Sequence record: DRR723986_6243
Strand: one strand, 5' to 3'
Length of the DNA stretch: 35,846 bases
This document shows positions 15,295 through 31,556 of the stretch, in pieces. The position numbers and the translations under genes were made by a program. The stretch's first letter is position 1; each line of letters starts with the position of its first letter. The notes below the pieces were generated by a model that saw nothing but the letters and a program-made list of their open reading frames with translations, did no database searches and was not told the DNA's origin.

Positions 15295-15297
15295 GGT

Positions 15298-15507
15298 TCA
15301 GTCCTCGCTAAAACGGGAAGCCATTGCAATGCCAAACAAGAAGGGCCAGCGCTGGAATGAGTCGTATACCGCCTGGTCCTGTTGAATGTCTTGGTACATG
15401 TTGTGGTCAAAACCTTCCAGTTGGGCGCTGAGTGCGTAAATATCATGTGCCATGTCTGCGGGTGGCATGAACAAGGCGGGCGGTGAATTGGGGTCAAATT
15501 GTGCCAT
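15298..15507 (-). CDS. bcsR: Cellulose biosynthesis protein BcsR (YhjR-like)
   Basis: 69 aa. 'DIYAL...YQDI..Q......RWPFL' matches the BcsR pattern (E. coli 'DIVAL...YADI..RE.....KRWPLL', recalled). Starts 17 bp after the bcsG stop. Confidence 0.72.
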   Translation of the reverse strand: MAQFDPNSPPALFMPPADMAHDIYALSAQLEGFDHNMYQDIQQDQAVYDSFQRWPFLFGIAMASRFSED

Positions 15508-15524
15508 GGTTGATCAAGCCCCCC

Positions 15525-17228
15525 TCAGTTGGATGCTGCAATGGTTTGAACCGGACCCAGTATTTTCCATGCGGCACCTGGGGCTTTGATCCAATACGAT
15601 CCCTGACTTTCCATCACAGTGATGTTGCCTTGTTGGGATACAAATCGGGTGTCGGGTAGGTCGCTGAGCAGCACTGGCCATGCTGGTTTTTGCTGTTGCT
15701 CGGCTGGTAGTGCCAGCCAACGTGCCAACAATTCACTGAGCGCGGTGTAGCTCACTGATTGCTTCACTGTCACTGGCCCGGTGCTTGCAGGTGTATAACC
15801 AGGTGCTATCCAGTAACCAAATACAGGTACTTTGGTGATGGCGGGTGTCGGTAACTCGCGCAGTCCCACCAGTTGACCAAATTCACCAGTTAAGCCGGCG
15901 CCGTGTTCGGGTACCACCACCACCAGCGCCTTGCGTTCACTGCGGCGAATTTCCCCAAGTACGGATTGAATGTCATTCAACATACGCTCAAGGCGCAAGG
16001 GGTAACTGTTCAAGCTGTTCAGGTTGCTGTTGGGCAAACGGTTGCCGTCATGCAAGGTGATGCTGTTGTAGTAATAAGCCACTGCGGGCCCGCTTTGCTG
16101 AACGCGTTTGTTCCACCATGCACGCAGGTAATCACCATCGCGACCCACGCGTGAGCCATCAAAGGCCTGCACCCCGGCGGGCACTTCATCATGGGCCACC
16201 AGTTCAGTGGCTCTGCCACCCAGGTTTGTTTTTACAAGTTTTGAGAAGTCTTGAAAACGACCATCGTGATTCAGCCCCATTTCCACTTCAAAGCCCACGT
16301 TTCTCAGTTGCTCGAACAGCATGCAACTGTTGCTCGCCGGGCTGTAAAGTGCATCGTGCGGTGTTTGCCCACATTTTCCGCGCAACAAGCGAATGGCGGC
16401 TGGCCCCGAGTAACTGGTCGCTGAGTTGAAGTTTTCGAATACGAAATCGGCTTGCCGAATAGCCGGGTGTTGGCTCTGTTTTGCATACTGCAGGTCAGCC
16501 CAGGACAGCGAACAGATTTGCAGCACAATCACATCGAAATCCGGACTGGCCTGGGGTGCAAAGGGTGCCAGTGCAATGGTGCGTTGCCTTTCAAAAAAGC
16601 CGGCGAGAACGGCGCCCGGCCCCGCACCTTCATAGGCGTTGTCTCGAAGTTTGGTTTGACTTTCCTGGTCGCGCGCTACCCGCAGTTTTTGAAAATCGAC
16701 TTGGCCGAGCGCCAGTAGTTCAGCGGGCGACAAGTTTTCACGCGCCTGTATTTGGGGTTCAAGCACGGTAGCAGTGTTGTTGGTTTGGGTCTGCTCTTGA
16801 ATAAACGGCAGTGCCTGAATACCCAGGATGCAGACAAGCCCGAAGCCGACCCAACTACTGATGCGTATGTAACGATCCAGCACCCGCACTACCATGAAGC
16901 CCAGAAGTGCGCCCCACAGCATCCAGGGTTGAATGGTACGCTTGAGCAGTTCCCACAAATAGTCTGGGGAAAAACCGAACAGTGCCTTGATTTGATCAAC
17001 CAGCGCCAGCGACACCACCAGTCCTAACTCATGCAAGAGCAAAGCGATCGCCGGCCCGGTGAACACCAGGTAGCGCAGTACCTTCATCAGTTGCTTGTTC
17101 TGATAGGCCGCCGGGTTGGTGGCAATCAACAGGGCAAACAGACCCAAATTCCACAAGGGGCTAATGGTCAGTTGCCCGGCGAAGTGCAAGCCAAACTTGA
17201 TCAGGAAGTACAGGTTCCACAACAGCAT
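15525..17228 (-). CDS. bcsG: Cellulose phosphoethanolamine transferase BcsG
   Basis: N-terminal 'WNLYFLIKF' TM domain, 'QICSLSWADL', catalytic 'NSATSYSGPAAIRLLR', 'LHDGNR', 'PEHG', 'GLRELP'. Confidence 0.93.
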   Translation of the reverse strand: MLLWNLYFLIKFGLHFAGQLTISPLWNLGLFALLIATNPAAYQNKQLMKVLRYLVFTGPAIALLLHELGLVVSLALVDQIKALFGFSPDYLWELLKRTIQPWMLWGALLGFMVVRVLDRYIRISSWVGFGLVCILGIQALPFIQEQTQTNNTATVLEPQIQARENLSPAELLALGQVDFQKLRVARDQESQTKLRDNAYEGAGPGAVLAGFFERQRTIALAPFAPQASPDFDVIVLQICSLSWADLQYAKQSQHPAIRQADFVFENFNSATSYSGPAAIRLLRGKCGQTPHDALYSPASNSCMLFEQLRNVGFEVEMGLNHDGRFQDFSKLVKTNLGGRATELVAHDEVPAGVQAFDGSRVGRDGDYLRAWWNKRVQQSGPAVAYYYNSITLHDGNRLPNSNLNSLNSYPLRLERMLNDIQSVLGEIRRSERKALVVVVPEHGAGLTGEFGQLVGLRELPTPAITKVPVFGYWIAPGYTPASTGPVTVKQSVSYTALSELLARWLALPAEQQQKPAWPVLLSDLPDTRFVSQQGNITVMESQGSYWIKAPGAAWKILGPVQTIAASN

Positions 17229-17232
17229 GGCC

Positions 17233-19719
17233 CTAGTTCTCCCACTTCTCGGTTTGGTTCTTGTTGCCCATCAGGCGATTGCCCAAATCAACAGCACCGT
17301 CTTTAAGCCAGGCAAACAGGCGAACGTAACCGATCATGCCTTTGGCAAATACGTCTTTCAGACCACCCAGTGCACGGTCACGCGTTTGGTCTTCTTGCCA
17401 GTTGAGCCATGCGTCGGCCCGGCCAAAGGTGCATTGAATCAACTGTGTTTCCTGCTCTGGGGTGAGGTTGGTGAACAAGGCCTCGACATGCCCTGTTTCA
17501 GTGAAGTGAATTTTGGCCGGGAACAGGAATTCCCGGTCGCCCCGGTGCAAGCCAACCTGCACCTGGCTGAATTCGCTGATACCCGAGGTGTCGGCCACAG
17601 CCAATGTCAGCCCGGCGGCTGAGTATTCTTCGGTGTAGCAACTGACCGTGTAGCCTCCGGGCAGTTTCAAAAAGGCGGGCATCACCATTCGCACCCGGTG
17701 GTGTACATGTTTCTGAACCGACTCGGTTGCCACACCCACGGCCGCACCCAGAATGGCCAGGTTGAAGCCACACCACAACAGGTTCATTAACACCGTGCCT
17801 GTTTCATGGGTATTGAACACAAACAGGCGAAGCAAACCCACTGAAAAGCCCAACACATTGATCAACAGCAAAATCAGGTAGGGCTTCGCAATGTTCGCAT
17901 CAAAATAACTTTTCTCGATCAAGCCGCCTTTCGAGGTGACGTTGAACTTGCCCAGTTTCGGATTAATAAAGGCCAGCGTAGTCGGCAGAATGATGTACCA
18001 GGACAACACGGTTTCATACACTTCAGACCAGAACGATCGACGGTATTTGCCCTGAATTACCGAGTTGGTGTAGCTGGAAATCATCAACTGTGGCAAGGCG
18101 TAACTGAGAATGGTCACTGCGGCAGCATTGATCAGGTGTTGTTCAAAAAACAGGTAAGCCATGGGCATGACCAAAAAGATCATGCGGGGTATGCCGTAGA
18201 AAAAATGCAGCATCGCATTGGAATAGCAAATGCGCTGAAACAGGCTCAACCCCTTTTTGAACATCGGGTTGTCCGTGCGGAAAATTTGAGCCATGCCGCG
18301 TGCCCAGCGAATGCGCTGACCAATGTGGCCCGCCAGGGTTTCCGTGGCCAGGCCCGCTGCCTGAATATTGTTCAAGTACACACTGTTGTAGCCCAGGCTG
18401 TGCAGTTTAAGGGCGGTGTGCGCGTCTTCAGTCACGGTTTCTACCGCAATGCCACCCACCTCCAGCAATGCTTTGCGTTCAATCACCGCGCAGCTGCCGC
18501 AGAAAAATGAGGCGTTCCAGTAGTCGTTTCCGTCTTGGATCAGGCCGTAGAACAAAGAGCCCTCATTGGGCATTTGTCGAAATGAGTTGAAGTTGCGTTC
18601 GAACGGGTCTGCCGAGAAAAAGTGGTGCGGTGTTTGTACCAACACGCACTTGGGGTCACGGCTGAACCATCCCATGCTGGTTTGTAGAAACGAGCGTGTG
18701 GGTATGTGGTCGCAATCAAAAATGGCAATGTACTGGCCATGCGTGTGTTTCAAGGCGTAGTTGATATTGCCGGCTTTCGCATGGGAGTTGTCAGGGCGGG
18801 AAATGTATTCAACACCGGCTTGTTTTGCAAATTCTTCAAAGGCAGGGCGGTGCCCGTCGTCCAGAATGTAGACCGTTATTTTTTCAAGTGGCCAATCCAA
18901 ACCTTTGGCCGCATAAACCGTGGGGCGCACCACGGACAAAGGCTCGTTGTAACTGGGGATGAACACGTCTACGGTGGGCCAGTCATTCAGGTTCAGTTCC
19001 AGCGGCATGGGTTTGCGTTTCAAGGGCCATGCGGTCTGAATGAATCCGAATATCAGAATAATCCAGGTGTAGGCTTCGGCAGCAACCAAGGTATAACCCA
19101 GGAAAATTTCAGTGCCACTTTCAAGGTCAAGTGAACTGGTGAAACGCCAAAACACATAGCGTGCCAGCAGCAACATGGTCAGTGCCATCAGGCACAAGTT
19201 GGCAAAGCGCTCGGGCAAGCGTTTGAACAACATGGCGAACAGATAGCACACCACGATAAAGATCCATTGTCCTGCCAGGGGCAATGAGGCTTGAGCCGTG
19301 AATAGAAACAGGGCCAGGGCAGAAAGGCCCAACGCCCAGCGTAACCATTTGAAGCGCACCACAAAGTGGCTGGCGTTTTCTATTCGCTGTTCAAGCCGTG
19401 CTGCGCGCACGGCATAGTCAGTGAATCTGCTGAATTGCAAGCGTACAACGCGATAGGGACGCTGAATCAGAAACTTGAACAGATAGGTGATCGGGCTCAG
19501 CAAATCGTGCAGAGCAACAACAACAATATGCAGCACGAAACTTGGAAGGCTTCGGCCTTGTCGGCCATTGGATGCCTCCAGTGCGCTGTTTAAACTGTTC
19601 GGGCGCAGCCAAAGTGCCTGGAATAGGCGTAACAAACGAACCCGGGTTTTCAGGTTCGGAAATTCGCGCAGGTCAAGCAGGCGCTCTAGTCGGTTGATCC
19701 AGCTTGATGAGGTGCTCAT
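17233..19719 (-). CDS. bcsA: Cellulose synthase catalytic subunit BcsA (GT2 plus degenerate-looking PilZ)
   Basis: 'PSYNE', 'DDG', 'HAKAGN', 'DCD', 'QTPH', 'FFCGS', 'TED', 'QRIRW' and gating loop 'FNVTSK'. Confidence 0.97.
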   Translation of the reverse strand: MSTSSSWINRLERLLDLREFPNLKTRVRLLRLFQALWLRPNSLNSALEASNGRQGRSLPSFVLHIVVVALHDLLSPITYLFKFLIQRPYRVVRLQFSRFTDYAVRAARLEQRIENASHFVVRFKWLRWALGLSALALFLFTAQASLPLAGQWIFIVVCYLFAMLFKRLPERFANLCLMALTMLLLARYVFWRFTSSLDLESGTEIFLGYTLVAAEAYTWIILIFGFIQTAWPLKRKPMPLELNLNDWPTVDVFIPSYNEPLSVVRPTVYAAKGLDWPLEKITVYILDDGHRPAFEEFAKQAGVEYISRPDNSHAKAGNINYALKHTHGQYIAIFDCDHIPTRSFLQTSMGWFSRDPKCVLVQTPHHFFSADPFERNFNSFRQMPNEGSLFYGLIQDGNDYWNASFFCGSCAVIERKALLEVGGIAVETVTEDAHTALKLHSLGYNSVYLNNIQAAGLATETLAGHIGQRIRWARGMAQIFRTDNPMFKKGLSLFQRICYSNAMLHFFYGIPRMIFLVMPMAYLFFEQHLINAAAVTILSYALPQLMISSYTNSVIQGKYRRSFWSEVYETVLSWYIILPTTLAFINPKLGKFNVTSKGGLIEKSYFDANIAKPYLILLLINVLGFSVGLLRLFVFNTHETGTVLMNLLWCGFNLAILGAAVGVATESVQKHVHHRVRMVMPAFLKLPGGYTVSCYTEEYSAAGLTLAVADTSGISEFSQVQVGLHRGDREFLFPAKIHFTETGHVEALFTNLTPEQETQLIQCTFGRADAWLNWQEDQTRDRALGGLKDVFAKGMIGYVRLFAWLKDGAVDLGNRLMGNKNQTEKWEN

Positions 19720-20456
19720 CCGATCTCCGTGTCAATCCAATTGCACAGCTTTTGCTGATCTTCCACCAACTGTGAGCGTGGTGCATAGTCGGCCAGGGCC
19801 AGGCCAGCGGCCAGGCTTTCTGCCAGTGCCTGGTCTTCATGCAAATAAAAGGGCAGCAAACGGTGGCTCAGTTTCATTTTGCACAAAGTCCACAAATCCA
19901 GATGCAGTACCTTGGCTGAGTCGAAGCGGTTCATGAGAAAGTACGATGCGCCCCGGCTTTCGAGCAAATGTGGAAGTAGTGCGTCGATACCCAAAATAGA
20001 GGCAGAATCCGGAATCAGGGTAATCAGATTAAGATCAGACAGGGCCATCACTTTTTGGCACCATGGTGCAGGCCAACGCGGCAGGTCAATAATGACCACC
20101 GCATCTTCAGCAAACTGATCTTTTTGAAACAGTTCTGTCAGGCGTTGGGGTTGCTCCATCAATACCCGGTCAATCGCCAATTGCTGCGCCATCGTCACTT
20201 CACCGAAAGGCAGCAGCTTGAAGTCCGAATTGCTGGTGCTCATCACCTGTTCCAGAGGATCGCTCTGCAAGAGGACATGTGCAAGGCCGCGACTGCTGCG
20301 TTTGGTGAACCCCAACTGAAATTCAATGTTGTTGACGGGGTCTGCCTGCATCAGCGTCACATTGCGTCCCAGCATGCTGAGGTGGGTGGCCGTCGCAATC
20401 GCCAGGCTGGTTCGTCCTGCACCCCCGGTGGGGGAGACCAAAGCAATAATGATCAT
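19716..20456 (-). CDS. bcsQ: Cellulose biosynthesis ATPase BcsQ (MinD/ParA-like)
   Basis: Deviant Walker A 'SPTGGAGRTS', 'DPVN', 'LPFG', 'IDLP', 'HEDQALAESLA...Y.P.S'. Its stop overlaps the bcsA start (ATGA). Confidence 0.88.
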   Translation of the reverse strand: MIIIALVSPTGGAGRTSLAIATATHLSMLGRNVTLMQADPVNNIEFQLGFTKRSSRGLAHVLLQSDPLEQVMSTSNSDFKLLPFGEVTMAQQLAIDRVLMEQPQRLTELFQKDQFAEDAVVIIDLPRWPAPWCQKVMALSDLNLITLIPDSASILGIDALLPHLLESRGASYFLMNRFDSAKVLHLDLWTLCKMKLSHRLLPFYLHEDQALAESLAAGLALADYAPRSQLVEDQQKLCNWIDTEIG

Positions 20457-20662
20457 GCGTCCTCTTTTTCATCGGGGCTGGCAATCCATTTGCCATGCCG
20501 CACCAGCTGATAACAGTCGTCGGGTAACTGGTTGTTGCTCCAGTTCACCCAGTCACTTAACCAGATTCTGGTTGTCGGGTTTTTCATCATTTTGCCCACT
20601 ATCAAAATAGTGAGCAAAACGCCCAGCAGCAAACCACTCGCTATCAATGCAAGAACGATCAT
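20453..20662 (-). CDS. Small single-pass membrane protein, BcsF-like by position
   Basis: 69 aa with one N-terminal TM helix and a soluble tail. Translationally coupled (ATGA overlaps) to both bcsE and bcsQ. Confidence 0.55.
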   Translation of the reverse strand: MIVLALIASGLLLGVLLTILIVGKMMKNPTTRIWLSDWVNWSNNQLPDDCYQLVRHGKWIASPDEKEDA

Positions 20663-22065
20663 TTTGCATCCTCACTCAATAGTGCATTCAGGCGTTGTGT
20701 CCATGGGCGATTCTGGTTCAATGCTTCTGGGGTTTCATCCCAAAGATCTGCCAATTCCGAAGACTCGTTCTGGTCAGAGCCCATCAGGTCTTGCACTGAC
20801 AATGGTTCCAGTTCTTCGTGCAAATCGGCCAGCAATTCACTTTGTGTTTCTTCGCCCAAAAATTGAATGTCCCCACTGAAAAGTACGGGCAGGCTTTCCC
20901 GGAAACACGATTCAAGCCATTGGCGATAGCTGGCTTCATCAGGTTCACTGTCCCACATCTTCAGCAGATAAATGGCCTCCCGGGTGGCGGTAAACACACA
21001 TGTGGCCTGCGACCAATTGGCCAGGCGAAGCGCCGTTTGTGCAGTCATGTGACGCATCAGTGAAAGGCGGGTCAACGTGCAATGCATGGACCATTGTTTG
21101 CTCAGTTGCAACATCATCAAGCCCTGCGCCGCGAATGTCGGATTGGCTACCACTGTCAACAGGCCAGGCATGAACACCTCATGCAAGTCGCGCGAGAAGG
21201 TGTTCAGATGAGTTTTTGGGAGGTAATCATGCGTAGACGGTTTATTGACCTGCCCTGTGTCCAGACCCAACCAGGTTTCCATGTTTTGCTCATGCAGCCA
21301 CACCGTGTCCGCACCCATGCGCAGCAACACGGAGGCATCTTGTGCTGATACCTCGCCATGCGTCTGGATGTGAATCCCATGTTGCTTGTCGTTCTCGAAG
21401 CGAAGGCTGTGGCTGGCCTGTGCCAGTTGCTTCAGGTTGCCAAACACAGTGCTGTCGAGCACATGGTGCATGGGCAGTTTTGACAGTTCACTGGTGTCAT
21501 TCCACAGGTTGGTTTGCAGGCCCCATTGACTGGGCCACCAGGGGCGAAACTCAAATTCGCCAAAGTCGCTGACATCGGCCAACCCATCAGCAAAAGTGCT
21601 CCACTCGGGCAAGTCACCCTGTACGGTCGTGACTACATGGGCCTGCGCATGGTGGGCCCATTGATGCAACAGTCGCATTTGAGCCAGTGGGTTTTGCCTG
21701 TCCAGAGACTCTTTGCTGTCATCAAACCAGAGTTCAGCATGTTCGATGATCACCAAAGCAGGTTTCAACACGCACAGCGTATTCAAGGAACGGCAAAGTT
21801 GGCGAATGCCGTTCTTGGCATGCCCTTTCGCCCACAAGTTTCGAACAGACACCACATCCAGGCCTTTCGGGGCGCCCGCACGTTTGAGCAAATAAGGTTC
21901 CAGAAGGCTGCGTACTTCGTTCTTTGGGCTTGCTGTCAGCCACAGGCAAGACTTGAATGGTGTCTCTTCTTGCGAGTCCAGCCAATGCTGCACCAAGCTC
22001 TGCGAAAAACGATTCGCATGGGGCGCGCGTACAACATAGGCTCCGGGCTTGGGCAAGTCGATCAT
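20659..22065 (-). CDS. bcsE: Divergent BcsE-like cellulose biosynthesis protein
   Basis: Lies within the bcs operon. 'SAQDASVLLRMGADTVW' resembles BcsE 'RATDERLLLACGANMVI', and 'FRESLPVLFS' resembles 'FPLPTGDIFS' (recalled). Degenerate ATPase-like N-terminus. Confidence 0.7.
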   Translation of the reverse strand: MIDLPKPGAYVVRAPHANRFSQSLVQHWLDSQEETPFKSCLWLTASPKNEVRSLLEPYLLKRAGAPKGLDVVSVRNLWAKGHAKNGIRQLCRSLNTLCVLKPALVIIEHAELWFDDSKESLDRQNPLAQMRLLHQWAHHAQAHVVTTVQGDLPEWSTFADGLADVSDFGEFEFRPWWPSQWGLQTNLWNDTSELSKLPMHHVLDSTVFGNLKQLAQASHSLRFENDKQHGIHIQTHGEVSAQDASVLLRMGADTVWLHEQNMETWLGLDTGQVNKPSTHDYLPKTHLNTFSRDLHEVFMPGLLTVVANPTFAAQGLMMLQLSKQWSMHCTLTRLSLMRHMTAQTALRLANWSQATCVFTATREAIYLLKMWDSEPDEASYRQWLESCFRESLPVLFSGDIQFLGEETQSELLADLHEELEPLSVQDLMGSDQNESSELADLWDETPEALNQNRPWTQRLNALLSEDAK

Positions 22066-24489: not shown

Positions 24490-25633
24490 AGCTTTTAACC
24501 TCTTTGCCACGGGGCAACAGTTCACCCAGTGAATTAAAACGATAAAAATTGTCCATATAGCCTTGAGCAAACAGGCTCAAGGCACCGTTGTAATAACCGT
24601 ATTTCAGCCACGCTTCCTTGTTTGCTGTTTTCAGGCTTTGGGTGTGAAATTTTTTCGCAAGCTCGGGCATGCCGATGGCTTGAAGAAAAGGTGCCATGCT
24701 GGCTTGAAAACCGGCAGGTCCTCGCTCCGCTGAATATTTTCCACTCAGTGGTTCAAACCACTCCGGCATATTCTGGCGTTTTAATAGCAGGGCAGCCATA
24801 GGCGAAAGCTGTTTCAGCAAGGCTGCTGTAGTCGGGTCTTTGTCGCTGCTCATGGCAATCCACAGGTAGGTGCGTATGGCGTCGTAGTCCCCTCGTTGCT
24901 CATCATCGGGCAAGCGCATTTCACCGTTGTTGTACAACACCCAGTCGGGATATTGGCCCGTGCGGCCAGTGTCCAGCAGCAGTTTTTGGCTGGCCAGGTA
25001 AACCTGTGCCCAACGTGTATCGTCCGCCCAGGCGTTGGCAAATCGAGCCATCATGAAAGGTGGCAGGTAACTGGGGTTCAGTTTCACTGCTCCGTCGTCC
25101 TGCACAAAACCGGTGCGACCAGGCAGTATGCTCAATCCCAAGCCACTGACTTCCATGCTTTCTTTATTGAGGATCAGTTCGCCGAGCGCTCGCGCCTTGT
25201 CTGCATAGGCGGGGTTGCACCACACGCGGCTTGCCTCCAGTAATGTGAATGCAATCCACAAGTCGGCATCGGAGGCGCTGTTGGCGTCAATCACCCCCCA
25301 GCTTTCTCCGGTCTTGCCCCAGATCCACGCAGGCAGTTGTTGACTCATATCGCCCGCACTCAGATTGTTTTCAGTCCACTGCAATATGGCGTCGAACGCT
25401 TTTCGGTCTTGTGCTACCAAGGCAAAAAACAGGGCATAGGACTGCCCCTCCGACACTGTGCGCAGGTCTTCCTGGCTGCGATCAATCACTCGCCCGTCGT
25501 CGCTGACAAACGCACTCTTGAACCCGTCCCAGGCGGGCCAGGCTTGAGCGGGTGCGGCGCTGCAGGCCGTGGTCGCAGCAAGCAGAAGGGTGCCCAGTCC
25601 GATGCGTCGCAAACAATCACGCCACAAGACCAT
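24482..25633 (-). CDS. bcsZ: GH8 endo-1,4-beta-glucanase BcsZ
   Basis: 'TVSEGQSYALFFAL', 'LPAWIWG', 'NSASDADLW', 'NPSYLP', 'YDAIRTYLW'. Start moved to ATG 25633, 2 bp after the bcsB stop. Confidence 0.93.
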   Translation of the reverse strand: MVLWRDCLRRIGLGTLLLAATTACSAAPAQAWPAWDGFKSAFVSDDGRVIDRSQEDLRTVSEGQSYALFFALVAQDRKAFDAILQWTENNLSAGDMSQQLPAWIWGKTGESWGVIDANSASDADLWIAFTLLEASRVWCNPAYADKARALGELILNKESMEVSGLGLSILPGRTGFVQDDGAVKLNPSYLPPFMMARFANAWADDTRWAQVYLASQKLLLDTGRTGQYPDWVLYNNGEMRLPDDEQRGDYDAIRTYLWIAMSSDKDPTTAALLKQLSPMAALLLKRQNMPEWFEPLSGKYSAERGPAGFQASMAPFLQAIGMPELAKKFHTQSLKTANKEAWLKYGYYNGALSLFAQGYMDNFYRFNSLGELLPRGKEVKSCG

Positions 25634-25635
25634 GT

Positions 25636-27867
25636 TCAGTTGCCTTTTGTACGACGCGACGCCCGGCCGGAAAGCCAGCCAAATGCAAGAATTGCCAAGA
25701 TGACACCGGCGAGTGCGCCGCCCACCGCGATGAGTGCCGGGTACTCGGAGAACGCGATCCTCAAACGCAACCACCAAGGCAGTGCACCGCTGATGTAAGT
25801 GTCTCCCAAGCTGTAACTTTGTATGTCATCACCCCGAATCAGGCTCACGCTGCCTTTGATTTTGGCGACGTCGCCGTAGTCCGACAATGCCGCCACCGCG
25901 CGTTCAAAACTGTCTTGGTCTGTGCCGGTGACGACCAGGCCAGCCTTTTTTGGCGCAAGGTGCGACTCAAAACCCATAATTGCGCCCAGCGAGCCAGCGG
26001 TTTGAATCAATGCACGTGCGTTGTCACCTGGTTGTAGCTCCGAGTCGCTTTGCCACAAACCTTTCAACCACTGAATGGCGGGAGGCAGGCCCATGCTGCG
26101 TTCCGTGGCACTCAGTACCATGGGCAAGTTCATGTTGGCTGTATTCAGCCAGCCCAGGCGGTCACTGGTGCCCATGGCCAGCCAGTTTTTGCTGCCAATA
26201 CCGTCTGGCTTGTCAGAAACAATCAGGCTTGTACGTGTGGCAGGCAAGCCGGTCCACTGACCAAACAGACCCATCACATTCAAGTAAGAGCGAATTTCAA
26301 GCGGTGTGGGGGTGGCGGGTAGCACAATGGCCGTATCGGAGAGGTCTGCCATGATGCTGAATGGATAGCCGCCGTTGGCAAAGGCGGTCAGGTTCGGCAT
26401 GCGGGTGTAATGGGGCAGATTGGAGAAGTCCAAGGTTGATTCGGGGTCAATGGATCCGCGCGCTACTTGCGATACCCGTGTGCAAGAGCCACCACCTTCG
26501 GCCATGAAGCCAAATGCAAAGGCCAGTTCGTTATTGCCGCCCACGCGGAACGCTGGAATTTGCAGGGCTTCTTCGCTGGTCAACTCCGCTTGACCCAACA
26601 GGTCAATGTTGATTTTGTTTTGTACCTGTTCCGAGCGCGGAGCCAGGCGGAAGGATTGAATCAGAGAGTTGTTGATTTCGATGTTCAGCAGCGAATCATT
26701 CCAACGGGAGGGGGCCGTGTATCGGTACTTCAAATCCATCGGAATGTTTCGGCCCGCCCAACTGAACAAATCTGGTGGCAGGCGCAAATTGATGCTGGCG
26801 CGTGGCTTGTCGGAACTGACTTCCAATTGTCCCGGGAAATCAATCAGTTCACCAAAACGTACCGGCCGGTTGGTGGGTACATAGCGTGGTGCATCATAGG
26901 GCTTGCGCGGCGCACCCAGGTCCACTTTTTTCACCAGGGCTTTTTGTCCGCTGAGCACCTGGCCTTCAATGACCAAGCCATATACAGCCTGTAAAAGCTC
27001 CTCATCGGTTCGCCCCATCACATACAAATGTTTGACCCAAGGGTTTTCCTTGGCGCTCACGATCATCAGGGAAGGACCTTCAATATCGGCCTCGCTCATG
27101 CCTTCCGGCATTTTCTTGCCTTTGGTCAGAATGATGGTGTGGCGTGTTGGCGATGCCGAGTCAAGCAGTTCAAATTCGGCTTGACGGTAAAAAGCTTGCG
27201 CACCCATCCAGGAGGCCAGAATGCCGGCGGCTTTCAAGCTGGCATCAGTTTGCTCCACTGGCAATACCAGCGGCAGTCTGAGTTTTCGGTTGTCGCGAGG
27301 GTCGAAAAATGGCGCTGGCAACAGCGCCAGGTCATTCACCAGATTCAGCGGTGTAGATCCAATCGTTAACGTGCTCTCCGGGCGAATGTCAAAACGCAGG
27401 GTTGGGTTGCCTGGGTCCACGCATTCACTGTCGTAGGTGCCGTCGTATTCAACTCGAATGGTCGCGAAATCGGAAAAAAGCAGTGGATCCAATTCAATTT
27501 CAACAGTGTGCGGCACACCGGCGCGTGCTGCGCTCAACTGGGACAGGCCTGAAAGCTGGTTGTTGACGTAAACACGAACAAATGATTGATCGTGACGCAT
27601 ACCCTGCGGATACAGTACCCGAAGGCTCAGGCTTGCGCGAGTCACCAACTCGTCCAGGCGGATACCCGAATTCAAGTCAACAAAGCGGTTGACCCCGCTT
27701 AGCCGAACCCCGTTTGGCTGCCCCATTTGGGCAAAGGTCAACGTTCGGGTTCGTTCAATGGCTGGGGCCATTTCCGAATTGGTAGAAGTCGATGTGGGCT
27801 CTTTACTTTCTTGTGAGTACCCAGTTAGACAGAATAGGAATAACGCTAGGGATAGAAGGTGTCGCAT
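25636..27867 (-). CDS. bcsB: Cellulose synthase periplasmic/co-polymerase subunit BcsB
   Basis: Signal peptide, 'NDLALLPAPFFDPRD', 'RKPYDAP', 'LPPDLF', 'PNLTAFANGGYPFS..ADLS', C-terminal TM anchor. Start ATG 27867 (alternative TTG 27903). Confidence 0.93.
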   Translation of the reverse strand: MRHLLSLALFLFCLTGYSQESKEPTSTSTNSEMAPAIERTRTLTFAQMGQPNGVRLSGVNRFVDLNSGIRLDELVTRASLSLRVLYPQGMRHDQSFVRVYVNNQLSGLSQLSAARAGVPHTVEIELDPLLFSDFATIRVEYDGTYDSECVDPGNPTLRFDIRPESTLTIGSTPLNLVNDLALLPAPFFDPRDNRKLRLPLVLPVEQTDASLKAAGILASWMGAQAFYRQAEFELLDSASPTRHTIILTKGKKMPEGMSEADIEGPSLMIVSAKENPWVKHLYVMGRTDEELLQAVYGLVIEGQVLSGQKALVKKVDLGAPRKPYDAPRYVPTNRPVRFGELIDFPGQLEVSSDKPRASINLRLPPDLFSWAGRNIPMDLKYRYTAPSRWNDSLLNIEINNSLIQSFRLAPRSEQVQNKINIDLLGQAELTSEEALQIPAFRVGGNNELAFAFGFMAEGGGSCTRVSQVARGSIDPESTLDFSNLPHYTRMPNLTAFANGGYPFSIMADLSDTAIVLPATPTPLEIRSYLNVMGLFGQWTGLPATRTSLIVSDKPDGIGSKNWLAMGTSDRLGWLNTANMNLPMVLSATERSMGLPPAIQWLKGLWQSDSELQPGDNARALIQTAGSLGAIMGFESHLAPKKAGLVVTGTDQDSFERAVAALSDYGDVAKIKGSVSLIRGDDIQSYSLGDTYISGALPWWLRLRIAFSEYPALIAVGGALAGVILAILAFGWLSGRASRRTKGN

Positions 27868-28121
27868 AAGTGGTTTCGCTGGTCGACTTGAATGTAAGAA
27901 CAAAAACAGGTTTGTGTAATTGGCCTGTTTAAATCAATGTCCTCGAAAATAATGGAACAATATTTGTCAATCTTTTAAAAAGCATGTAGCACAAGTTCAT
28001 ACGTTATCCTATTGTTTTTGTATATGCTCAATTTGTGGAACTTGTTTTATACAATTATTGCGTGAAGTGTCGAAAAGAGCACACTTTCAGAAAAGAGAAT
28101 TAACAGTTTAGGGCGAATAAC
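27868..28121. promoter_or_regulatory. AT-rich divergent promoter region between the bcs operon and the partner-switch operon
   Basis: About 250-bp non-coding AT-rich gap. Contains the inverted repeat ACAAGTTC (27991-27998) / GAACTTGT (28038-28045) and the direct repeat GAAAAGAG (28072-28079, 28090-28097). Confidence 0.6.
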
Positions 28122-28460
28122 ATGGTTTCGACAGAAGAGATGGGGGATGTTTTCGTGCTGCGTGTTGACGCAGTTCGATTGGACAGTGCTGTGGGAACCA
28201 TCATCCGCAACGCGGTGGTCTCCAAGCTGGACTCCACGCGGAAATTTGCTTTGGATATTGGTGCAGTCAAGCTGGTGGACTCAGGCGGTTTGGGTTCATT
28301 GGTTGCTTTGCTCAAGAACATCACCAACCACCAGGGCAAGCTGGCTTTGGTCGGGATGAACAAATCCGTGCGGATGATGTTCGAGCTGTCTCGCATGGAC
28401 CGACAGTTTTCCTTGCTGGACGACATGCCCAAGGCAGTCGCCTTTCTGCAGCAGGCCTGA
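28122..28460 (+). CDS. STAS-domain anti-sigma-factor antagonist (SpoIIAA/RsbV-like)
   Basis: 112 aa, 'RLDS', 'LDIGAVKLVDSGGLGSLV' (phosphoacceptor Ser after Asp), 'VRMMFELSRMD'. Confidence 0.9.
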   Translation: MVSTEEMGDVFVLRVDAVRLDSAVGTIIRNAVVSKLDSTRKFALDIGAVKLVDSGGLGSLVALLKNITNHQGKLALVGMNKSVRMMFELSRMDRQFSLLDDMPKAVAFLQQA

Positions 28461-28466
28461 CCCACT

Positions 28467-31400
28467 GTGACGGACCACAATCCCAACAAGCCGCTGCCCC
28501 GAATTCTGGTTGTTGATGATTCGGTGGTAGAGCGAAACCTCTTCGTTCACATGGTAGCCAGGTGGGGATATCCGGTTGAGTTTGCAGCCAGCGGTCAAGA
28601 GGCCATCCAACTTGTAGAACGTGATCGGTTCCAATTGGTGCTGGCGGACTGGCAAATGCCTGGCATGCAGGGCACTGAATTGTGTGCAGCCTTACGCCAG
28701 CTGGACCTGGGGCAGTACACCTACATCATCCTGATGTCTGCCCAGAATGATGAAGAGTTCTTGATCAAGGCGCTGGATGCCGGTGCCGACGATGTTCTCG
28801 CCAAGCCTGTAGATGGCAATGAACTGGAAGCACGCTTGCAGTCGGCCGTTCGCCGAATTGAACTTCAAGCGCAGCTCGCCCGCAAAACAGACGAACTGGC
28901 ACATGCCCACGATGTGATTGCACAAGATCTCCGAGCGGTGTCTGGCCTTCAACGCAGTTTCCTACCCGAAATACAAAGCCCATTCCAGGGTCTGAACTAT
29001 CAGTGGTTGTCCGTGCCGTCCAAATACGTGTCTGGCGATCACTTGCAGGTTTTTGAATTGCAGCGCGACGTGTATGGTTTTTACCTGCTCGATGTATCCG
29101 GGCATGGCATACCTGCCGCCGTGAAATCCATGCAACTGGTTCAGATGTTTGCGGATCGGTCTGCCACCAGCATTGTTTTTGAAGGTCGTCTGGGACCGGA
29201 TGGTCAGCGTTTGATTTCTCGCCCACGCGATGTAGTTGCGCGCCTGAACCGCCTGTTTCAGCAAACCGAATCTGATCTTTCTTACTTCACCATGATTTAC
29301 GGCGTGTTCAATACCGTCAATCGACAGGTGGCCCTGTGCCAGGCCGGCCATCCCTCCCCCTTGCTGTTGTCAGTCGGACAACCCGCCAAAGTGCTGGGCG
29401 GTGGCGGGTATCCTGTGGGTTTGTTCGACCTCGATGATTTTGAGGACATTGAACTGACGCTGGGCAACGAGGATTCCCTGATTCTGTATTCCGATGGTGT
29501 CACCGAGGTCCTGTCGGCCAGCGCTGAGGCATTTGGCGAAGAACGCCTGATTGAGTTTGTCAATCAGCAAGGCGCTCAGGGGCGTTGGTCCGATTTGCCT
29601 GAGCGCATTCAAATGCGCGTTCAACGTTGGGGCGGCTCGGTCATCGAGCAAAAAGGTTTTGAGGACGACGTGTCTATCCTGATGCTCGCGCCTCGCCCCG
29701 GGGTGTTGGACCAGAGTGATGTGGTGGATGCGGACCGGCAGGTGCCCGAACTGGTGTTTCGTCTTCAGGAAATTCAGAACAGTCAGCCTGTCTCTGTGCC
29801 CGCGAAAGCCGGGAAGTCAATTGTCATCGTTGACGATTCCCGCAGCTTTTTGAGAATTTTTGAGGCCATGCTGCACAGCTGGGGCTACACCGTTCATGCT
29901 GCAAAAAATGGCCATGAGGCTTTGACCCTGATTGAAAAACACCAGCCCGACTTTGTGCTCACCGACTGGGACATGCCTGGCATGAGCGGCATTGAGTTGT
30001 GCGAGCAAGTGCGGGCTCAAAAGCAAAACGCCTACACCTATATCATCATGATCACTGGCTACGCCAGTCGCGACGATCTGCTGAACAGCCTGCGCGTGGG
30101 GGCGGATGATTTCATGACCAAGCCGGTCAATCCAGGCGAGCTGAAAGTGCGTTTGAAAACCGCCGAGCGGATTGCAGATTTGCACATGGGGCTAGAGCGC
30201 AGACACACCGAACTCAGCCAACTGTATGAAGCGTTGCAGCGTGACATGCGAGAAGTGTCGCGCATTCAGCGGGCCTTGTTGCCTAAAAGTAAACAAGAAC
30301 CCTGGCCATTCGCCATTCAGACCATTTATCAACCGCAGGGCTATGTGTGCGGCAAACAAATGGGTCTGCTCGAAACCCAGGCCAATGAGCATGGTTTTTT
30401 CATGTTGAACATGGCGGGCCAGGACACGGCCACCGCCTTGCAGACCATGGCGCTGGCGAGGTGGTTCTCCATGGCGCGGGCCACTCGAGTCTTGTTTCCC
30501 GTGGAGGAGACCAGTTCGAAAATTCGACGTTACCTGGCCAGCCCGGAGCAGGTTCTAGCCCAGTTGTCGAGCATTTCCCCCTCCCTAAAGGACGAGCCTC
30601 CCCAGTTCGATCTGCTGTACGGTTTGATCAATCTGGATCAGGGCACCTTGTTGATCGCGGGTATTGGTGAGTGGTCCATGGTCATGGCCCAGCCTGGCTT
30701 GGCACCCGCATTTTTGGGTATGCAAGGCGAGCATGGCCAAGCACCTGGTGTAGGGCAGGTTATTTATCAGGGTGTGATTGCTCCTGGTAGCCGACTTTAT
30801 TTTTATCCGCGGGAATGCGCCCACACTCTGGGGGTACCTCATTCACAGGTATGGCAACAATCCGTCTTGCTGGATGACACCCAAGGCTATGTGCTGACTC
30901 GCGAGTTTTCGAGATTACTCGATTCCGGTCGCAAGGAAGACAGCACCGGGGGCGACTTGTGTTTGCTGGGTATTCAGTGGCGAGAGAGCTTTGAAGTTCA
31001 ACGCCTTGATTTGTCCTCAGCCCAAGTGTCCGAGTTGGTTGATGAGTTCGTGCAGACAGGCTTGACCCTGCAAGACGAGTTTTCATCTCACGAGCAGGCA
31101 TTTAAATTGGGTGAGTTTTTAAATTACACCGCATTCAGTGCCGTGGCCGACACCGTCAACATTGGCGTGTTGAGCCGCGCGGTCCGTACCTTTGTAGAAG
31201 AGCTGGCTTACACCGAGGAGGTTTGTTACAACACCGATTTGGTGGTGTCTGAAGCCCTGACCAATGTGATGCTGCACGGTTTTAAAGACAAACGTCCCGA
31301 GCCTGTGCGGCTCACCGTACTGGCTTTTCAGCACGGCGTCGGTGTGTTGATCGAGGACTGGGGTAGCCGTATCCCCGCCCATGTGCTCGGTAAAATGCAC

Positions 31401-31547
31401 CATGAACATTCATTCCAAGATGACCTTAGCTTGGACGACTTGCCCGAGGGGGGGATGGGTTTGGCATTCATGCGCATGGTGTCACAACGCTTCGTATACC
31501 AGGCCAGTCAAAACCAGCAAGGCAATCGCCTGTTGTTATTGTTGTAA
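28467..31547 (+). CDS. Fused regulator: REC - SpoIIE/PP2C phosphatase - REC - degenerate PP2C - RsbW-type Ser/Thr kinase (HATPase)
   Basis: REC1 'VVDDS..LADWQMPG..KP'. PP2C 'SGD','DVSGHG','AGHP','YSDG','DDVS'. REC2 'IVDDS..LTDWDMPG..KP'. Second PP2C-like block lacks the Asp motifs. Kinase 'SEALTNVMLHG','IEDWG','EGGMGL'. GTG start 6 bp after the STAS stop. Confidence 0.88.
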   Translation: MTDHNPNKPLPRILVVDDSVVERNLFVHMVARWGYPVEFAASGQEAIQLVERDRFQLVLADWQMPGMQGTELCAALRQLDLGQYTYIILMSAQNDEEFLIKALDAGADDVLAKPVDGNELEARLQSAVRRIELQAQLARKTDELAHAHDVIAQDLRAVSGLQRSFLPEIQSPFQGLNYQWLSVPSKYVSGDHLQVFELQRDVYGFYLLDVSGHGIPAAVKSMQLVQMFADRSATSIVFEGRLGPDGQRLISRPRDVVARLNRLFQQTESDLSYFTMIYGVFNTVNRQVALCQAGHPSPLLLSVGQPAKVLGGGGYPVGLFDLDDFEDIELTLGNEDSLILYSDGVTEVLSASAEAFGEERLIEFVNQQGAQGRWSDLPERIQMRVQRWGGSVIEQKGFEDDVSILMLAPRPGVLDQSDVVDADRQVPELVFRLQEIQNSQPVSVPAKAGKSIVIVDDSRSFLRIFEAMLHSWGYTVHAAKNGHEALTLIEKHQPDFVLTDWDMPGMSGIELCEQVRAQKQNAYTYIIMITGYASRDDLLNSLRVGADDFMTKPVNPGELKVRLKTAERIADLHMGLERRHTELSQLYEALQRDMREVSRIQRALLPKSKQEPWPFAIQTIYQPQGYVCGKQMGLLETQANEHGFFMLNMAGQDTATALQTMALARWFSMARATRVLFPVEETSSKIRRYLASPEQVLAQLSSISPSLKDEPPQFDLLYGLINLDQGTLLIAGIGEWSMVMAQPGLAPAFLGMQGEHGQAPGVGQVIYQGVIAPGSRLYFYPRECAHTLGVPHSQVWQQSVLLDDTQGYVLTREFSRLLDSGRKEDSTGGDLCLLGIQWRESFEVQRLDLSSAQVSELVDEFVQTGLTLQDEFSSHEQAFKLGEFLNYTAFSAVADTVNIGVLSRAVRTFVEELAYTEEVCYNTDLVVSEALTNVMLHGFKDKRPEPVRLTVLAFQHGVGVLIEDWGSRIPAHVLGKMHHEHSFQDDLSLDDLPEGGMGLAFMRMVSQRFVYQASQNQQGNRLLLLL

Positions 31548-31556
31548 ACAACGGGT

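Follow-up and report, generated by a model that had tools for sequence, protein, structure and literature searches.

How is cellulose production turned on at a locus whose c-di-GMP sensors look eroded and whose synthase operon shares its promoter region with a partner switch? The locus lies in a stretch of DNA of 35,846 nucleotides (record DRR723986_6243; hereafter the window) which belongs to Limnobacter, a genus of fresh and marine waters. The eroded sensors, together with the constant presence of a partner switch as neighbour, suggest a different way of switching cellulose synthesis on, and we weigh this reading below against three others.

A complete bcs operon in rearranged order

Nine bcs genes, all on the minus strand, form one tightly coupled operon in the order bcsB-Z-C-E-F-Q-A-G-R, which is not the E. 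coli order:

25636..27903, minus strand: bcsB, first gene of the operon (PF03170, 555 bits; NF008323, 677 bits); the ATG at 27867 is an alternative and may be the true start
24482..25777, minus strand: bcsZ, GH8 endoglucanase (PF01270, 232.8 bits)
22066..24570, minus strand: bcsC, short form of 834 aa (PF05420, 266.6 bits; TPR matches)
20659..22065, minus strand: bcsE, divergent, with predicted NTPase*-REC*-GGDEF* fold (AF2 model and Foldseek)
20453..20662, minus strand: bcsF-like 69-aa single-pass membrane ORF between bcsE and bcsQ, with hydrophobic N-terminus
19716..20456, minus strand: bcsQ (TIGR03371, 175 bits against a cut-off of 157.85)
17233..19719, minus strand: bcsA, cellulose synthase catalytic subunit (TIGR03030, 849 bits; motifs read)
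15525..17228, minus strand: bcsG, phosphoethanolamine transferase (PF11658, 480.9 bits; TIGR03368, 470 bits against a cut-off of 410)
15298..15507, minus strand: bcsR-like, last gene of the operon (PF10945, 33.9 bits against a cut-off of 25.2)

From bcsC to bcsR the genes overlap by 4 nt or are separated by gaps of at most 17 nt, and a single promoter region precedes all nine, which are translationally coupled. Pfam, NCBIfam and motif reading upheld, at these coordinates, the earlier claim of a complete operon with intact catalytic motifs: BcsA retains DDG, DCD, TED, QRIRW and the gating loop FNVTSK, and BcsG retains SATSYSG and PEHG. BcsC has few TPRs and a C-terminal barrel. The bcsF-like ORF gave no match in a Pfam search and is kept in 21 loci. 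Judged by its sequence, the operon encodes in full a phosphoethanolamine-cellulose secretion system of the E. coli-like type (BcsEFG-containing), with the genes reordered as bcsBZCEFQAGR. The window had been said to hold no GGDEF or EAL gene; a Pfam scan of ORFs tiling it agreed, finding no GGDEF, EAL or histidine-kinase domain.

Erosion of the c-di-GMP motifs in the BcsA PilZ domain

The PilZ domain of BcsA had been described as an eroded c-di-GMP sensor. Direct alignment to the solved BcsA of E. coli (7lby) and R. sphaeroides (5ej1) placed the motifs and bore this out, as both RxxxR and DxSxxG are altered, the protein reading QKHVHHRV and EEYSAAG in the two motif regions:

17695..17709, minus strand: BcsA H671-V-H-H-R675, replacing RxxxR (alignment to 7lby and 5ej1; clade survey)
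17611..17628, minus strand: BcsA E698-Y-S-A-A-G703, replacing [D/N]xSxxG (alignment to 7lby and 5ej1; clade survey)

His671 aligns with R580 of R. sphaeroides, the first Arg of RxxxR, and Glu698 with D609, the Asp of DxSxxG; the second Arg (R675), S700 and G703 are kept here and in most clade sequences. The beta-barrel of a canonical PilZ receptor is present, as the fold aligns without gaps to the solved BcsA PilZ domains and is still recognised by PF07238 (25.0 bits against a cut-off of 22.5, and 57.0 bits in the canonical paralogue), but the full set of both Arg with D/N, Ser and Gly is not.

These losses have become fixed in the clade as a whole and are not peculiar to one sequence. Among Limnobacter BcsA, none of the 24 readable sequences has the first Arg, the position holding H 21 times and Y, F and N once each. 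We also compared clade with outgroup among the 120 nearest BcsA homologues from a search of 5.8 billion proteins: of the 43 clade sequences, 42 have another residue in place of the first Arg (H 30, N 6, F 2, S 2, Y 1, Q 1), the one exception being P0029 with R, whereas the first Arg was present in 78/78 nearest outgroup sequences. The motif Asp is replaced in 38/43 clade sequences, and Ser or Gly too in some. The Glu partner of the first Arg is Q, D or S in 5/43, as against E in each of the 73 outgroup sequences (of 78) with the pattern listed. That the substitutes at the first Arg are chemically unrelated argues for a role lost rather than replaced. Of 42 clade clusters, 14 carry no precomputed PilZ match. 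The barrel as such is not decaying, with a mean pairwise identity in the clade of 0.63 for PilZ against 0.82 for the GT domain (0.45 against 0.76 in the outgroup), so that the domain still has some role, possibly nucleotide binding. Furthermore, RxxxH is found naturally in 23/78 outgroup BcsA, which shows that BcsA elsewhere can depart from the motif by one residue with no loss of regulation known.

BcsE keeps its fold and appears to have lost its I-sites

The second sensor, BcsE, had also been called eroded. The BcsE-like ORF has no Pfam match and scores only 20.6 bits with TIGR03369 against a family cut-off of 244.65; by its predicted fold, it is a true BcsE, as a Foldseek search with its AF2 model (pLDDT 85.1) returned E. 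coli BcsE as top matches (9fnn_U, E 4.2e-13). The segments at the I-sites are:

20998..21009, minus strand: BcsE Q353-A-T-C356, at E. coli GGDEF* I-site R415TGD (hhalign; strand pattern of the model)
21337..21348, minus strand: BcsE S240-A-Q-D243, at E. coli REC* I-site R306ATD (profile alignments to 6tj0 and E. coli BcsE)

Neither site reads RxxD and both I-site arginines are absent in this low-confidence profile alignment, whose hhalign probability is only 25% and which is consistent with the strands of the model. Across loci, BcsE identity falls to 23-25% with gene order kept.

A His, Tyr or Phe at the first-Arg position could still stack on guanine, and the synthase may then be c-di-GMP-activated through a non-canonical PilZ site formed with R675, Ser and Gly, the partner switch being an extra upstream input, for example on a diguanylate cyclase, or acting on another process. 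The conserved barrel and linker, the retention of R675, S700 and G703 and the RxxxH variants of other BcsA would suit such a site, as would the seven GGDEF proteins (besides three other PilZ proteins) encoded in the nearest genome; for the upstream input, phosphorylated HsbA acting on HsbD in P. aeruginosa offers a precedent (PMC5085249). The Asn, Ser or Gln found at the first-Arg position in 9/43 clade sequences, however, can neither stack nor pair with Glu, the motif Asp has gone as well in 38/43 and Ser or Gly in some, the Glu partner is relaxed, and BcsE has apparently lost both I-site Args in parallel. In addition, neither the window nor the conserved neighbourhood holds a GGDEF gene, whereas the second bcs operon of one Limnobacter genome (G143), with canonical PilZ and the usual gene order, has one at its end and is without a STAS gene. 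We consider continued activation through such a site fairly unlikely.

A partner switch diverging from bcsB

The STAS gene and the dual-REC phosphatase/kinase gene reported earlier are indeed divergent from bcsB, and the regulator was found to have a degenerate second PP2C domain as well:

27904..28121, no strand: AT-rich divergent control region between bcsB and the STAS gene
28122..28460, plus strand: STAS-only protein (PF01740, 45.6 bits)
28467..31547, plus strand: 1026-aa regulator, REC-PP2C-REC-pseudoPP2C-RsbW-kinase (Pfam)
about 28500-28841, plus strand: regulator REC1 (Pfam)
29067-29687, plus strand: regulator PP2C (PF07228, 137 bits)
29820-30155, plus strand: regulator REC2 (Pfam)
about 30177-30746, plus strand: regulator pseudo-PP2C (internal duplication, E 7e-20; DVSGHG changed to NMAGQD)
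31158-31532, plus strand: regulator RsbW-type kinase domain, HATPase_c_2 (PF13581, 54.6 bits)

Ser54 of the STAS protein (28281-28283) lies within an invariant KLVDSGGLG, a motif kept in 22/22 orthologues, and matches, in alignment, the first Ser of the SpoIIAA motif DSSGLG; from the phosphorylation position in that motif, we take Ser54 to be the phosphorylatable Ser. The metal-binding motifs of the PP2C domain (DVSGHG, YSDG and DD), the REC2 Asp and the N and G boxes of the kinase (E929, N933, D964, G966, G996 and G998) are invariant in 5/5 regulators. The locus thus has a STAS Ser in DSxGLG, a SpoIIE-family PP2C and an RsbW/SpoIIAB-type Ser kinase, the parts of a partner switch, and with its catalytic and Ser motifs invariant the switch looks functional.

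The distance between bcsB and the STAS gene is 218 bp with the TTG start of bcsB and 254 bp with the ATG start, in keeping with the shared divergent promoter region of about 250 bp noted before. It contains a block at 28000-28029 conserved in an alignment of 20 species and a near-palindrome, GTGTCG-N6-GCACAC, at 28067-28084. A constitutively competent synthase could be governed from here by transcription alone, the RsbW-like domain or STAS holding and releasing a sigma factor or regulator which drives the single bcs promoter. Nine coupled genes behind one promoter region common to the STAS gene, and the conserved blocks in that region, are what this would call for; classical partner switches and P. 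aeruginosa HsbR/RssB act via sigma factors (PMC6482189), and it is RssB that the N-terminal half of the regulator most resembles (residues 12-362; best solved match 3eq2, E 1.1e-35). But no sigma or anti-sigma gene occurs in the four neighbourhood types examined, the outputs of SypA and All4160 are non-transcriptional in the sources cited below, and the control region has no recognisable promoter consensus, although the absence of a sigma-70 match is uninformative for alternative sigma factors. We would give a purely transcriptional switch a low probability.

Synteny and distribution

The order bcsR-G-A-Q-F-E-C-Z-B followed by the divergent STAS and regulator genes was found in 5/5 genomes examined in full. 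Among 25 full-length loci, all from Limnobacter or sister Burkholderiaceae MAGs, STAS and bcsB adjoin the regulator in each of the 24 with upstream DNA; a break in this synteny among relatives with the same motif losses, which the first-pass annotation had named as evidence against its proposal, was not seen. BcsA and the regulator are both encoded in 26/26 Limnobacter genomes, about 11 kb apart on one contig in 23, the remaining three being fragmented assemblies. Conversely, the regulator is absent (E<=1e-20) in all 36 other Burkholderiaceae genomes with BcsA, and the 15 BcsA retrieved from these all have RxxxR and DxSxxG. The suggested search for co-occurrence therefore came out as predicted: every checkable genome with an eroded BcsA has the STAS and phosphatase/kinase genes beside bcsB, and relatives with canonical BcsA are without the regulator. 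These co-occurrences all descend from one ancestor and count as one evolutionary event, not many.

The flank beyond the regulator varies (MerR/PLA1, MEKHLA/flagellin or sulfatase/RND pump; three changes). Within core Limnobacter, the flanks on either side of the locus are conserved as well.

The STAS protein and the regulator may be mere conserved neighbours with an unrelated target, bcs being regulated otherwise, as the single ancestor and the two conserved flanks would allow, and as regulator paralogues sit elsewhere in pilus or secretion clusters, which shows that the family is not bcs-specific. Against this, the adjacency has outlasted a fall in regulator identity to 36-39% and the three changes of the outer flank, the genes diverge from one common control region, and the adjacency is found exactly where the usual regulator sites have been lost. 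Mere neighbourhood is, in our judgement, quite improbable.

Proposed control of cellulose output

The central claim of the first-pass annotation, that control of cellulose moved from c-di-GMP to a Ser-phosphorylation switch, gains from the clade-wide motif loss, the co-occurrence and the contrast with G143, while the seven GGDEF proteins of the nearest genome and the retained R675, Ser and Gly speak against it; on sequence grounds the move is plausible but unproven. Gene content, the motif losses, their fixation in the clade and a strict synteny despite flank turnover are observed; we infer that the c-di-GMP response is lost, that the switch is linked to cellulose at all, and in which direction and on what target it acts. 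That c-di-GMP control of the Limnobacter synthase has been weakened or lost is probable, and that the partner switch controls cellulose output is only slightly less so; that both hold together falls just short of an even chance. Our preferred explanation as a whole, a c-di-GMP-independent synthase under partner-switch control acting post-translationally, we likewise hold tentatively.

In the preferred explanation both c-di-GMP receptors would be without their ligand-contact residues, namely the linker Arg and motif Asp of BcsA PilZ and both BcsE I-sites. With the R580-type Arg, the lock on the gating loop, gone, the synthase would most likely not be held off and would have no need of c-di-GMP; Morgan et al. 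reportedly obtained, in 2014, a constitutively active BcsA by changing R580. The partner switch, transcribed divergently, would take over control. Histidine kinases would act upon the REC domains of the 1026-aa regulator, and this input would set the balance of PP2C phosphatase and RsbW-type kinase and thereby the phosphorylation level of STAS Ser54, with unphosphorylated STAS, by analogy with SypA and All4160, as the form promoting polysaccharide synthesis. The most likely output would be post-translational action on the Bcs complex through BcsA-PilZ, BcsE or BcsQ, with bcs transcription from the shared promoter region as a close second; that the target is a protein directly within the Bcs complex is nevertheless doubtful in itself. 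A more specific and decidedly speculative version is that unphosphorylated STAS docks on the degenerate yet still conserved PilZ of BcsA, or else on BcsE with its I-sites gone, the one or the other having taken on this new role, and a phospho-regulated protein ligand would then replace c-di-GMP as the allosteric activator which frees the active site. If true, Limnobacter would provide both the first partner-switch-gated Bcs system and the first example of a synthase-fused PilZ domain with a protein, in place of a nucleotide, as its ligand; our literature search found no paper connecting Bcs with a partner switch.

Comparison with known systems

The operon has the same nine gene families as the type II Bcs systems of E. 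coli and Salmonella (bcsRQABZC plus bcsEFG), including the BcsG motifs, the BcsE fold, BcsQ and BcsR. The BcsA motifs with FxVTxK, BcsB, C, Z, Q and R and an above-cut-off BcsG are all present; within the phosphoethanolamine module, BcsE is assigned by fold only and BcsF by size, position and hydrophobic segment only. The BcsA of the window is 50-55% identical to E. coli BcsA (7lby) over the C-terminal 263 residues. Unlike that of E. coli, the system here is without RxxxR and [D/N]xSxxG (HxxxR and ExSxxG instead), appears to be without the RxxD I-sites of BcsE, has an 834-aa BcsC and a partner switch at the promoter, and places on a single strand what E. coli K-12 arranges as divergent bcsRQABZC/bcsEFG.

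In R. sphaeroides BcsA, the R580-E371 salt bridge locks the gating loop shut until c-di-GMP pulls the Arg away, and since R580 is His in the BcsA of the window, the lock cannot form there as described (PMC8892547). This BcsA does retain the Glu, along with the gating loop FxVTxK and QxxRW.

Precedents for partner switches acting on polysaccharide synthesis are SypE/SypA, HsbR/HsbA and Anabaena HenR/All4160. HsbR/HsbA and RssB/RssC of P. aeruginosa likewise pair a REC-PP2C(-RsbW kinase) protein with a STAS-only substrate encoded with it, but the Limnobacter regulator carries two copies of the REC-PP2C unit, of which the second has a degenerate PP2C, and the outputs known in P. aeruginosa (FlgM, HsbD and RpoS) do not include a polysaccharide synthase locus. 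Vibrio fischeri SypE resembles the regulator in joining kinase, REC and PP2C in one protein, with a STAS partner and a polysaccharide locus, and differs in domain order; the output of SypA is post-transcriptional (PMC4517449). Syp, however, is a Wzx/Wzy-type locus and not a synthase-dependent Bcs, with no c-di-GMP receptor being replaced. In Anabaena HenR/All4160/Alr3423, the phosphorylation state of a STAS domain controlling a polysaccharide glycosyltransferase depends on a Ser kinase and a REC-SpoIIE phosphatase, the unphosphorylated All4160 being the active form (bioRxiv 10.64898/2026.04.08.717354); in that system STAS domain and glycosyltransferase form one fused protein, whereas in Limnobacter a separate STAS protein stands beside a BcsA with a degenerate PilZ.

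The bcs operon and the divergent partner switch

The genes under study, with the bcs genes assigned by Pfam and NCBIfam, are as follows.

15298..27903, minus strand: nine bcs genes, namely bcsB, Z, C, E-like, F-like, Q, A, G and R-like
17233..19719, minus strand: bcsA
20659..22065, minus strand: bcsE-like gene, 468 aa
22066..24570, minus strand: bcsC, 834 aa
25636..27903, minus strand: bcsB
within the operon, minus strand: bcsZ, GH8
within the operon, minus strand: bcsF-like membrane ORF, 69 aa
28122..28460, plus strand: STAS protein, 112 aa
28467..31547, plus strand, 7 nt after the STAS gene: regulator, 1026 aa, with REC, PP2C (SpoIIE family), REC and C-terminal HATPase_c_2 domains

From bcsC to bcsR the junctions are 4-nt overlaps or gaps of at most 17 nt, and therefore the nine genes are read as one operon. 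Their sole upstream region is an AT-rich spacer of 218-254 bp which is common to the plus-strand STAS gene, in agreement with the divergent region of about 250 bp described in the first-pass annotation. The complete bcs operon with intact catalytic motifs claimed there was also recovered, both from the Pfam and NCBIfam matches and from the signatures read in BcsA (DDG, DCD, TED, QRIRW and FNVTSK) and BcsG (SATSYSG and PEHG). No GGDEF, EAL or histidine-kinase domain was detected in the scanned ORFs, which tile the whole window, so that the earlier claim of a window devoid of GGDEF/EAL genes holds. The window belongs to a Limnobacter (Burkholderiaceae), and BcsA of the nearest genome (G001) is 100% identical to the window BcsA over 828 residues. 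Contigs from two rRNA-depleted metatranscriptome runs of one study (X9 and X11) covered 30/30 bins of 15200-31600, a coverage which may include DNA carry-over and does not establish transcription, operon structure or co-expression.

A scan of the intergenic region for sigma-70 promoters and terminators gave 0 sites against 0.9 expected. Close species share a conserved block at 28000-28029 (ACGTTATCCTATTGTTTTTGTATATGCTC-like). The spacer also holds a near-palindrome, GTGTCG-N6-GCACAC, at 28067-28084, some 40 bp before the start codon of the STAS gene; the two could represent an operator or a 5'-UTR hairpin. Within the operon, the window BcsC is only 834 aa long, compared with 1359 aa in a second Limnobacter bcs operon, and it matches the E. 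coli-type BcsC model at positions 776-1157 only, besides a few TPRs; judged by these matches, its TPR scaffold is much reduced. A wax-ester synthase/DGAT gene (13882-15294) directly adjoins bcsR and keeps this position in Limnobacter and in a sister genus (G091). Two genes past bcsR in that sister genus there is a hybrid histidine kinase (HAMP-HisKA-HATPase-REC-REC, L004:4883-7192), a candidate input to the REC domains of the regulator, which is absent from that place in the window.

The first-pass annotation had described the regulator as a dual-REC phosphatase/kinase. Its two REC domains, PP2C and kinase were confirmed, and a degenerate second PP2C had been missed. Residues 565-750 repeat, in diverged form, the linker and PP2C at 130-315 (E 7e-20); in this repeat the metal-binding DVSGHG has changed to NMAGQD, and Pfam found nothing in residues 570-878. 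Because of this internal duplication and motif change the second copy is assigned as a pseudo-PP2C, and the predicted architecture is REC-PP2C, then REC-pseudoPP2C, then an RsbW-type kinase. In the STAS protein, KLVDSGGLG and a second stretch, MFELSRMDRQF, are kept in 22/22 orthologues, and the position of Ser54 corresponds in the alignment to the first Ser of SpoIIAA DSSGLG, where two deposited SpoIIAA constructs carry S or A. Across five diverged regulators the DVSGHG, YSDG and DD of the first PP2C, Asp500 of REC2 and the N and G boxes of the kinase are invariant; at the REC1 Asp, one of the five species has Asn. On these motifs the partner switch looks functional. The regulator orthologue of one low-completeness genome (65%; G128:C7:948-3428) carries an in-frame TGA, which may reflect a pseudogene or an assembly error.

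The PilZ site of BcsA

Direct alignment with the E. coli (7lby) and R. sphaeroides (5ej1) structures placed the first Arg of RxxxR (R580) on window His671, the second on Arg675 and the Asp of DxSxxG on Glu698. This BcsA is present in 26/26 Limnobacter species genomes. As observed in the 24 of them with a readable motif, the first-Arg place is H in 21 and Y, F and N in one each, never R, and the Asp place is E in 22, D in one and H in one. Wider counts were taken from the 120 nearest PilZ-region relatives in a collection of 5.8 billion proteins. In the clade formed by Limnobacter and its sister Burkholderiaceae (43 sequences including the window) the first-Arg place is occupied by H (30), N (6), F (2), S (2), Y (1), Q (1) and R (1), and in the more distant outgroup by R in 78/78. 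The PilZ erosion proposed earlier for BcsA is thus real and clade-wide for the first Arg and the Asp, and in most sequences does not extend to the second Arg, Ser and Gly, which remain. In 5/43 clade sequences Q, D or S replaces the Glu with which the first Arg pairs in the resting enzyme; this Glu is kept in 73/73 of those outgroup sequences (of 78) for which the pattern was printed. Retention of the Asp where the Arg is already gone is more frequent in deeper-branching members of the clade, which suggests a stepwise erosion of the motifs.

It could nevertheless be argued that clade BcsA keeps c-di-GMP binding, with an aromatic residue at the first-Arg place stacking on the guanine. The three remaining motif residues and the one clade sequence which retains the first Arg are in line with this, as is the content of the nearest genome, which encodes 7 GGDEF and 3 further PilZ proteins. 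The PilZ barrel itself is also conserved: mean pairwise identity of the barrel versus the GT domain is 0.63 versus 0.82 in the clade and 0.45 versus 0.76 in the outgroup, and simple PilZ decay was rejected, the barrel/GT ratio being no lower in the clade than in the outgroup. The domain is therefore still under selection for something. Departures from the canonical motif also occur elsewhere, since 23/78 outgroup BcsA (P0088-P0124; Dyella, some Paraburkholderia and others) read RxxxH, with the second linker Arg replaced by His and the first kept, apparently another natural variant with no known consequence. On the other side, the residues which substitute the first Arg are chemically unrelated, and so the change looks like a lost role rather than a new specific contact.

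The BcsE-like protein

Pfam gave no match for the 468-aa protein, and TIGR03369 scored only 20.6 bits against a cut-off of 244.65. An AlphaFold model built from 18 orthologues was of high confidence both per residue (pLDDT) and in overall fold (pTM), and Foldseek ranked full-length E. coli BcsE first, taken from the Bcs macrocomplex (9fnn_U, E 4.2e-13), and REC*-GGDEF* crystal structures next, by which the modelled protein is BcsE in fold. In profile alignments E. coli R306ATD aligns with window SAQD, and R415TGD with QATC, the latter gapless but of low alignment probability and in agreement with the strand-hairpin-strand pattern of the model. With these placements both I-site arginines appear gone, which upholds, at sequence level, the earlier view of BcsE as an eroded c-di-GMP sensor.

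Linkage of the switch to bcs across genomes

If the switch belongs with the eroded BcsA, STAS and phosphatase/kinase genes should accompany it beside bcsB, as the first-pass annotation predicted. Among 121 Burkholderiaceae genomes, 41 of them with BcsA, the regulator was found (E<=1e-20) in only 5/41, four Limnobacter and one of another genus, and these are exactly the five with the closest BcsA. All five have the order bcsR-G-A-Q-(F)-E-C-Z-B followed by the divergent STAS and regulator genes, and 15/15 BcsA fetched from the 36 genomes without the regulator carry canonical RxxxR and DxSxxG. A species-wide scan (one genome per species, 185,579 species) returned near-full-length regulators at 25 loci, all from Limnobacter or sister Burkholderiaceae MAGs, with STAS and bcsB upstream in 24/24 of those having upstream DNA; at 54 further retained loci the match was confined to the REC or PP2C parts. 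The predicted co-occurrence was therefore seen throughout, in 5/5 sampled Burkholderiaceae with the regulator and 24/24 loci.

Within the genus, 26/26 Limnobacter genomes have the regulator. In 23 of them one contig holds both it and the BcsA PilZ coding region, about 11 kb apart; the remaining three are fragmented assemblies, with the regulator on a different contig from BcsA. A sister lineage (G144) shows the same pairing, with THVHHR and EEYSAGG in BcsA. Along the conserved locus identity can be as low as 36-39% in the regulator and 23-25% in BcsE, and the genes beyond the regulator vary, from MerR/phospholipase A1 to MEKHLA/flagellin or sulfatase/RND pump. Only the bcs genes remain beside the switch as this outer flank changes. 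All of these co-occurrences stem from one ancestor.

Three Limnobacter genomes (loci L136, L127 and L128) encode a further BcsA, in which both motifs are canonical (REHPR and DFSMGG). In one, G143, the second operon (L136, G143:C1:2481000-2500900) has the usual order, bcsD and an unnamed ORF followed by Q-A-B-Z-C, its BcsA PilZ scores 57 bits, and no STAS gene was found in the locus. This canonical operon ends with a GGDEF-domain ORF directly after it, whereas the operons with eroded BcsA adjoin STAS and the regulator. Regulator paralogues of about 27% identity, made up of REC, two stretches of SpoIIE and HATPase_c_2, occur at L137:8203-11343 and L138:8383-11433, inside type IV pilus/T2SS-like clusters (T2SSE, T2SSF, PilO-like, M15 peptidase). 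The regulator family is thus not specific to bcs, and these multi-domain switches seem tied to surface machines in Limnobacter.

Proposed mechanism and comparison with known systems

c-di-GMP was discovered through cellulose synthase, and mutation of the R580 salt bridge of BcsA, in work of 2014 by Morgan et al., reportedly gives a constitutively active enzyme. According to a Bcs review (PMC8892547), in R. sphaeroides BcsA without c-di-GMP E371 and T511 hold R580 and the gating loop covers the active site, and c-di-GMP flips R580 away. Where R580 is replaced by His, Tyr, Phe, Asn, Ser or Gln, the synthase should be without this gating lock, and the cell would have to rely on some other brake, the obvious candidate being the conserved partner switch encoded divergently from bcs. 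We propose that unphosphorylated STAS promotes cellulose synthesis, by analogy with SypA and Anabaena All4160, and that the REC domains of the regulator, driven by histidine kinases, set its phosphatase-to-kinase balance. STAS acting at protein level on the Bcs complex is only slightly preferred over transcription from the shared control region. Uncoupling from c-di-GMP with control by the candidate switch is an attractive but hypothetical interpretation of the confirmed observation.

A comparative PilZ study states that BcsA-fused PilZ domains invariably retain c-di-GMP binding (10.1101/814665), to which the Limnobacter clade, judged by its motifs, would be an exception. STAS does not come up in the available text of the Bcs review. 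Full-text literature searches returned no relevant paper tying a partner switch or STAS protein to Bcs, and the papers found described no c-di-GMP-independent BcsA; for cellulose in Limnobacter they gave only a mention of bcsA/B/C in L. alexandrii LZ-4. In this literature the proposed rewiring appears new, as the first-pass annotation had supposed. If true, a genus and its sister lineages without key BcsA and BcsE contacts, and with a switch stably located at the single promoter region of the operon, form a natural counter-example, and a tractable one, as there are Limnobacter strains in culture. Such a clade provides a natural equivalent of the unlocked-synthase mutant and a possible route to cellulose production independent of c-di-GMP. 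A switch which is transcriptional only would be a more modest finding, yet new for Bcs.

The N-terminal REC-PP2C of the regulator is closest to P. aeruginosa RssB (3eq2, E 1.1e-35; NF045505). Partner switches controlling polysaccharides are known from SypE/SypA of V. fischeri, HsbR/HsbA of P. aeruginosa, acting via a DGC, and HenR/All4160 of Anabaena (bioRxiv 10.64898/2026.04.08.717354). For All4160, a STAS that cannot be phosphorylated restores polysaccharide formation, and the authors of that preprint argue for direct control of a glycosyltransferase. The Limnobacter system offers a test of such direct action on synthase-dependent exopolysaccharide machines, the support for which so far comes mainly from cyanobacteria and Vibrio.
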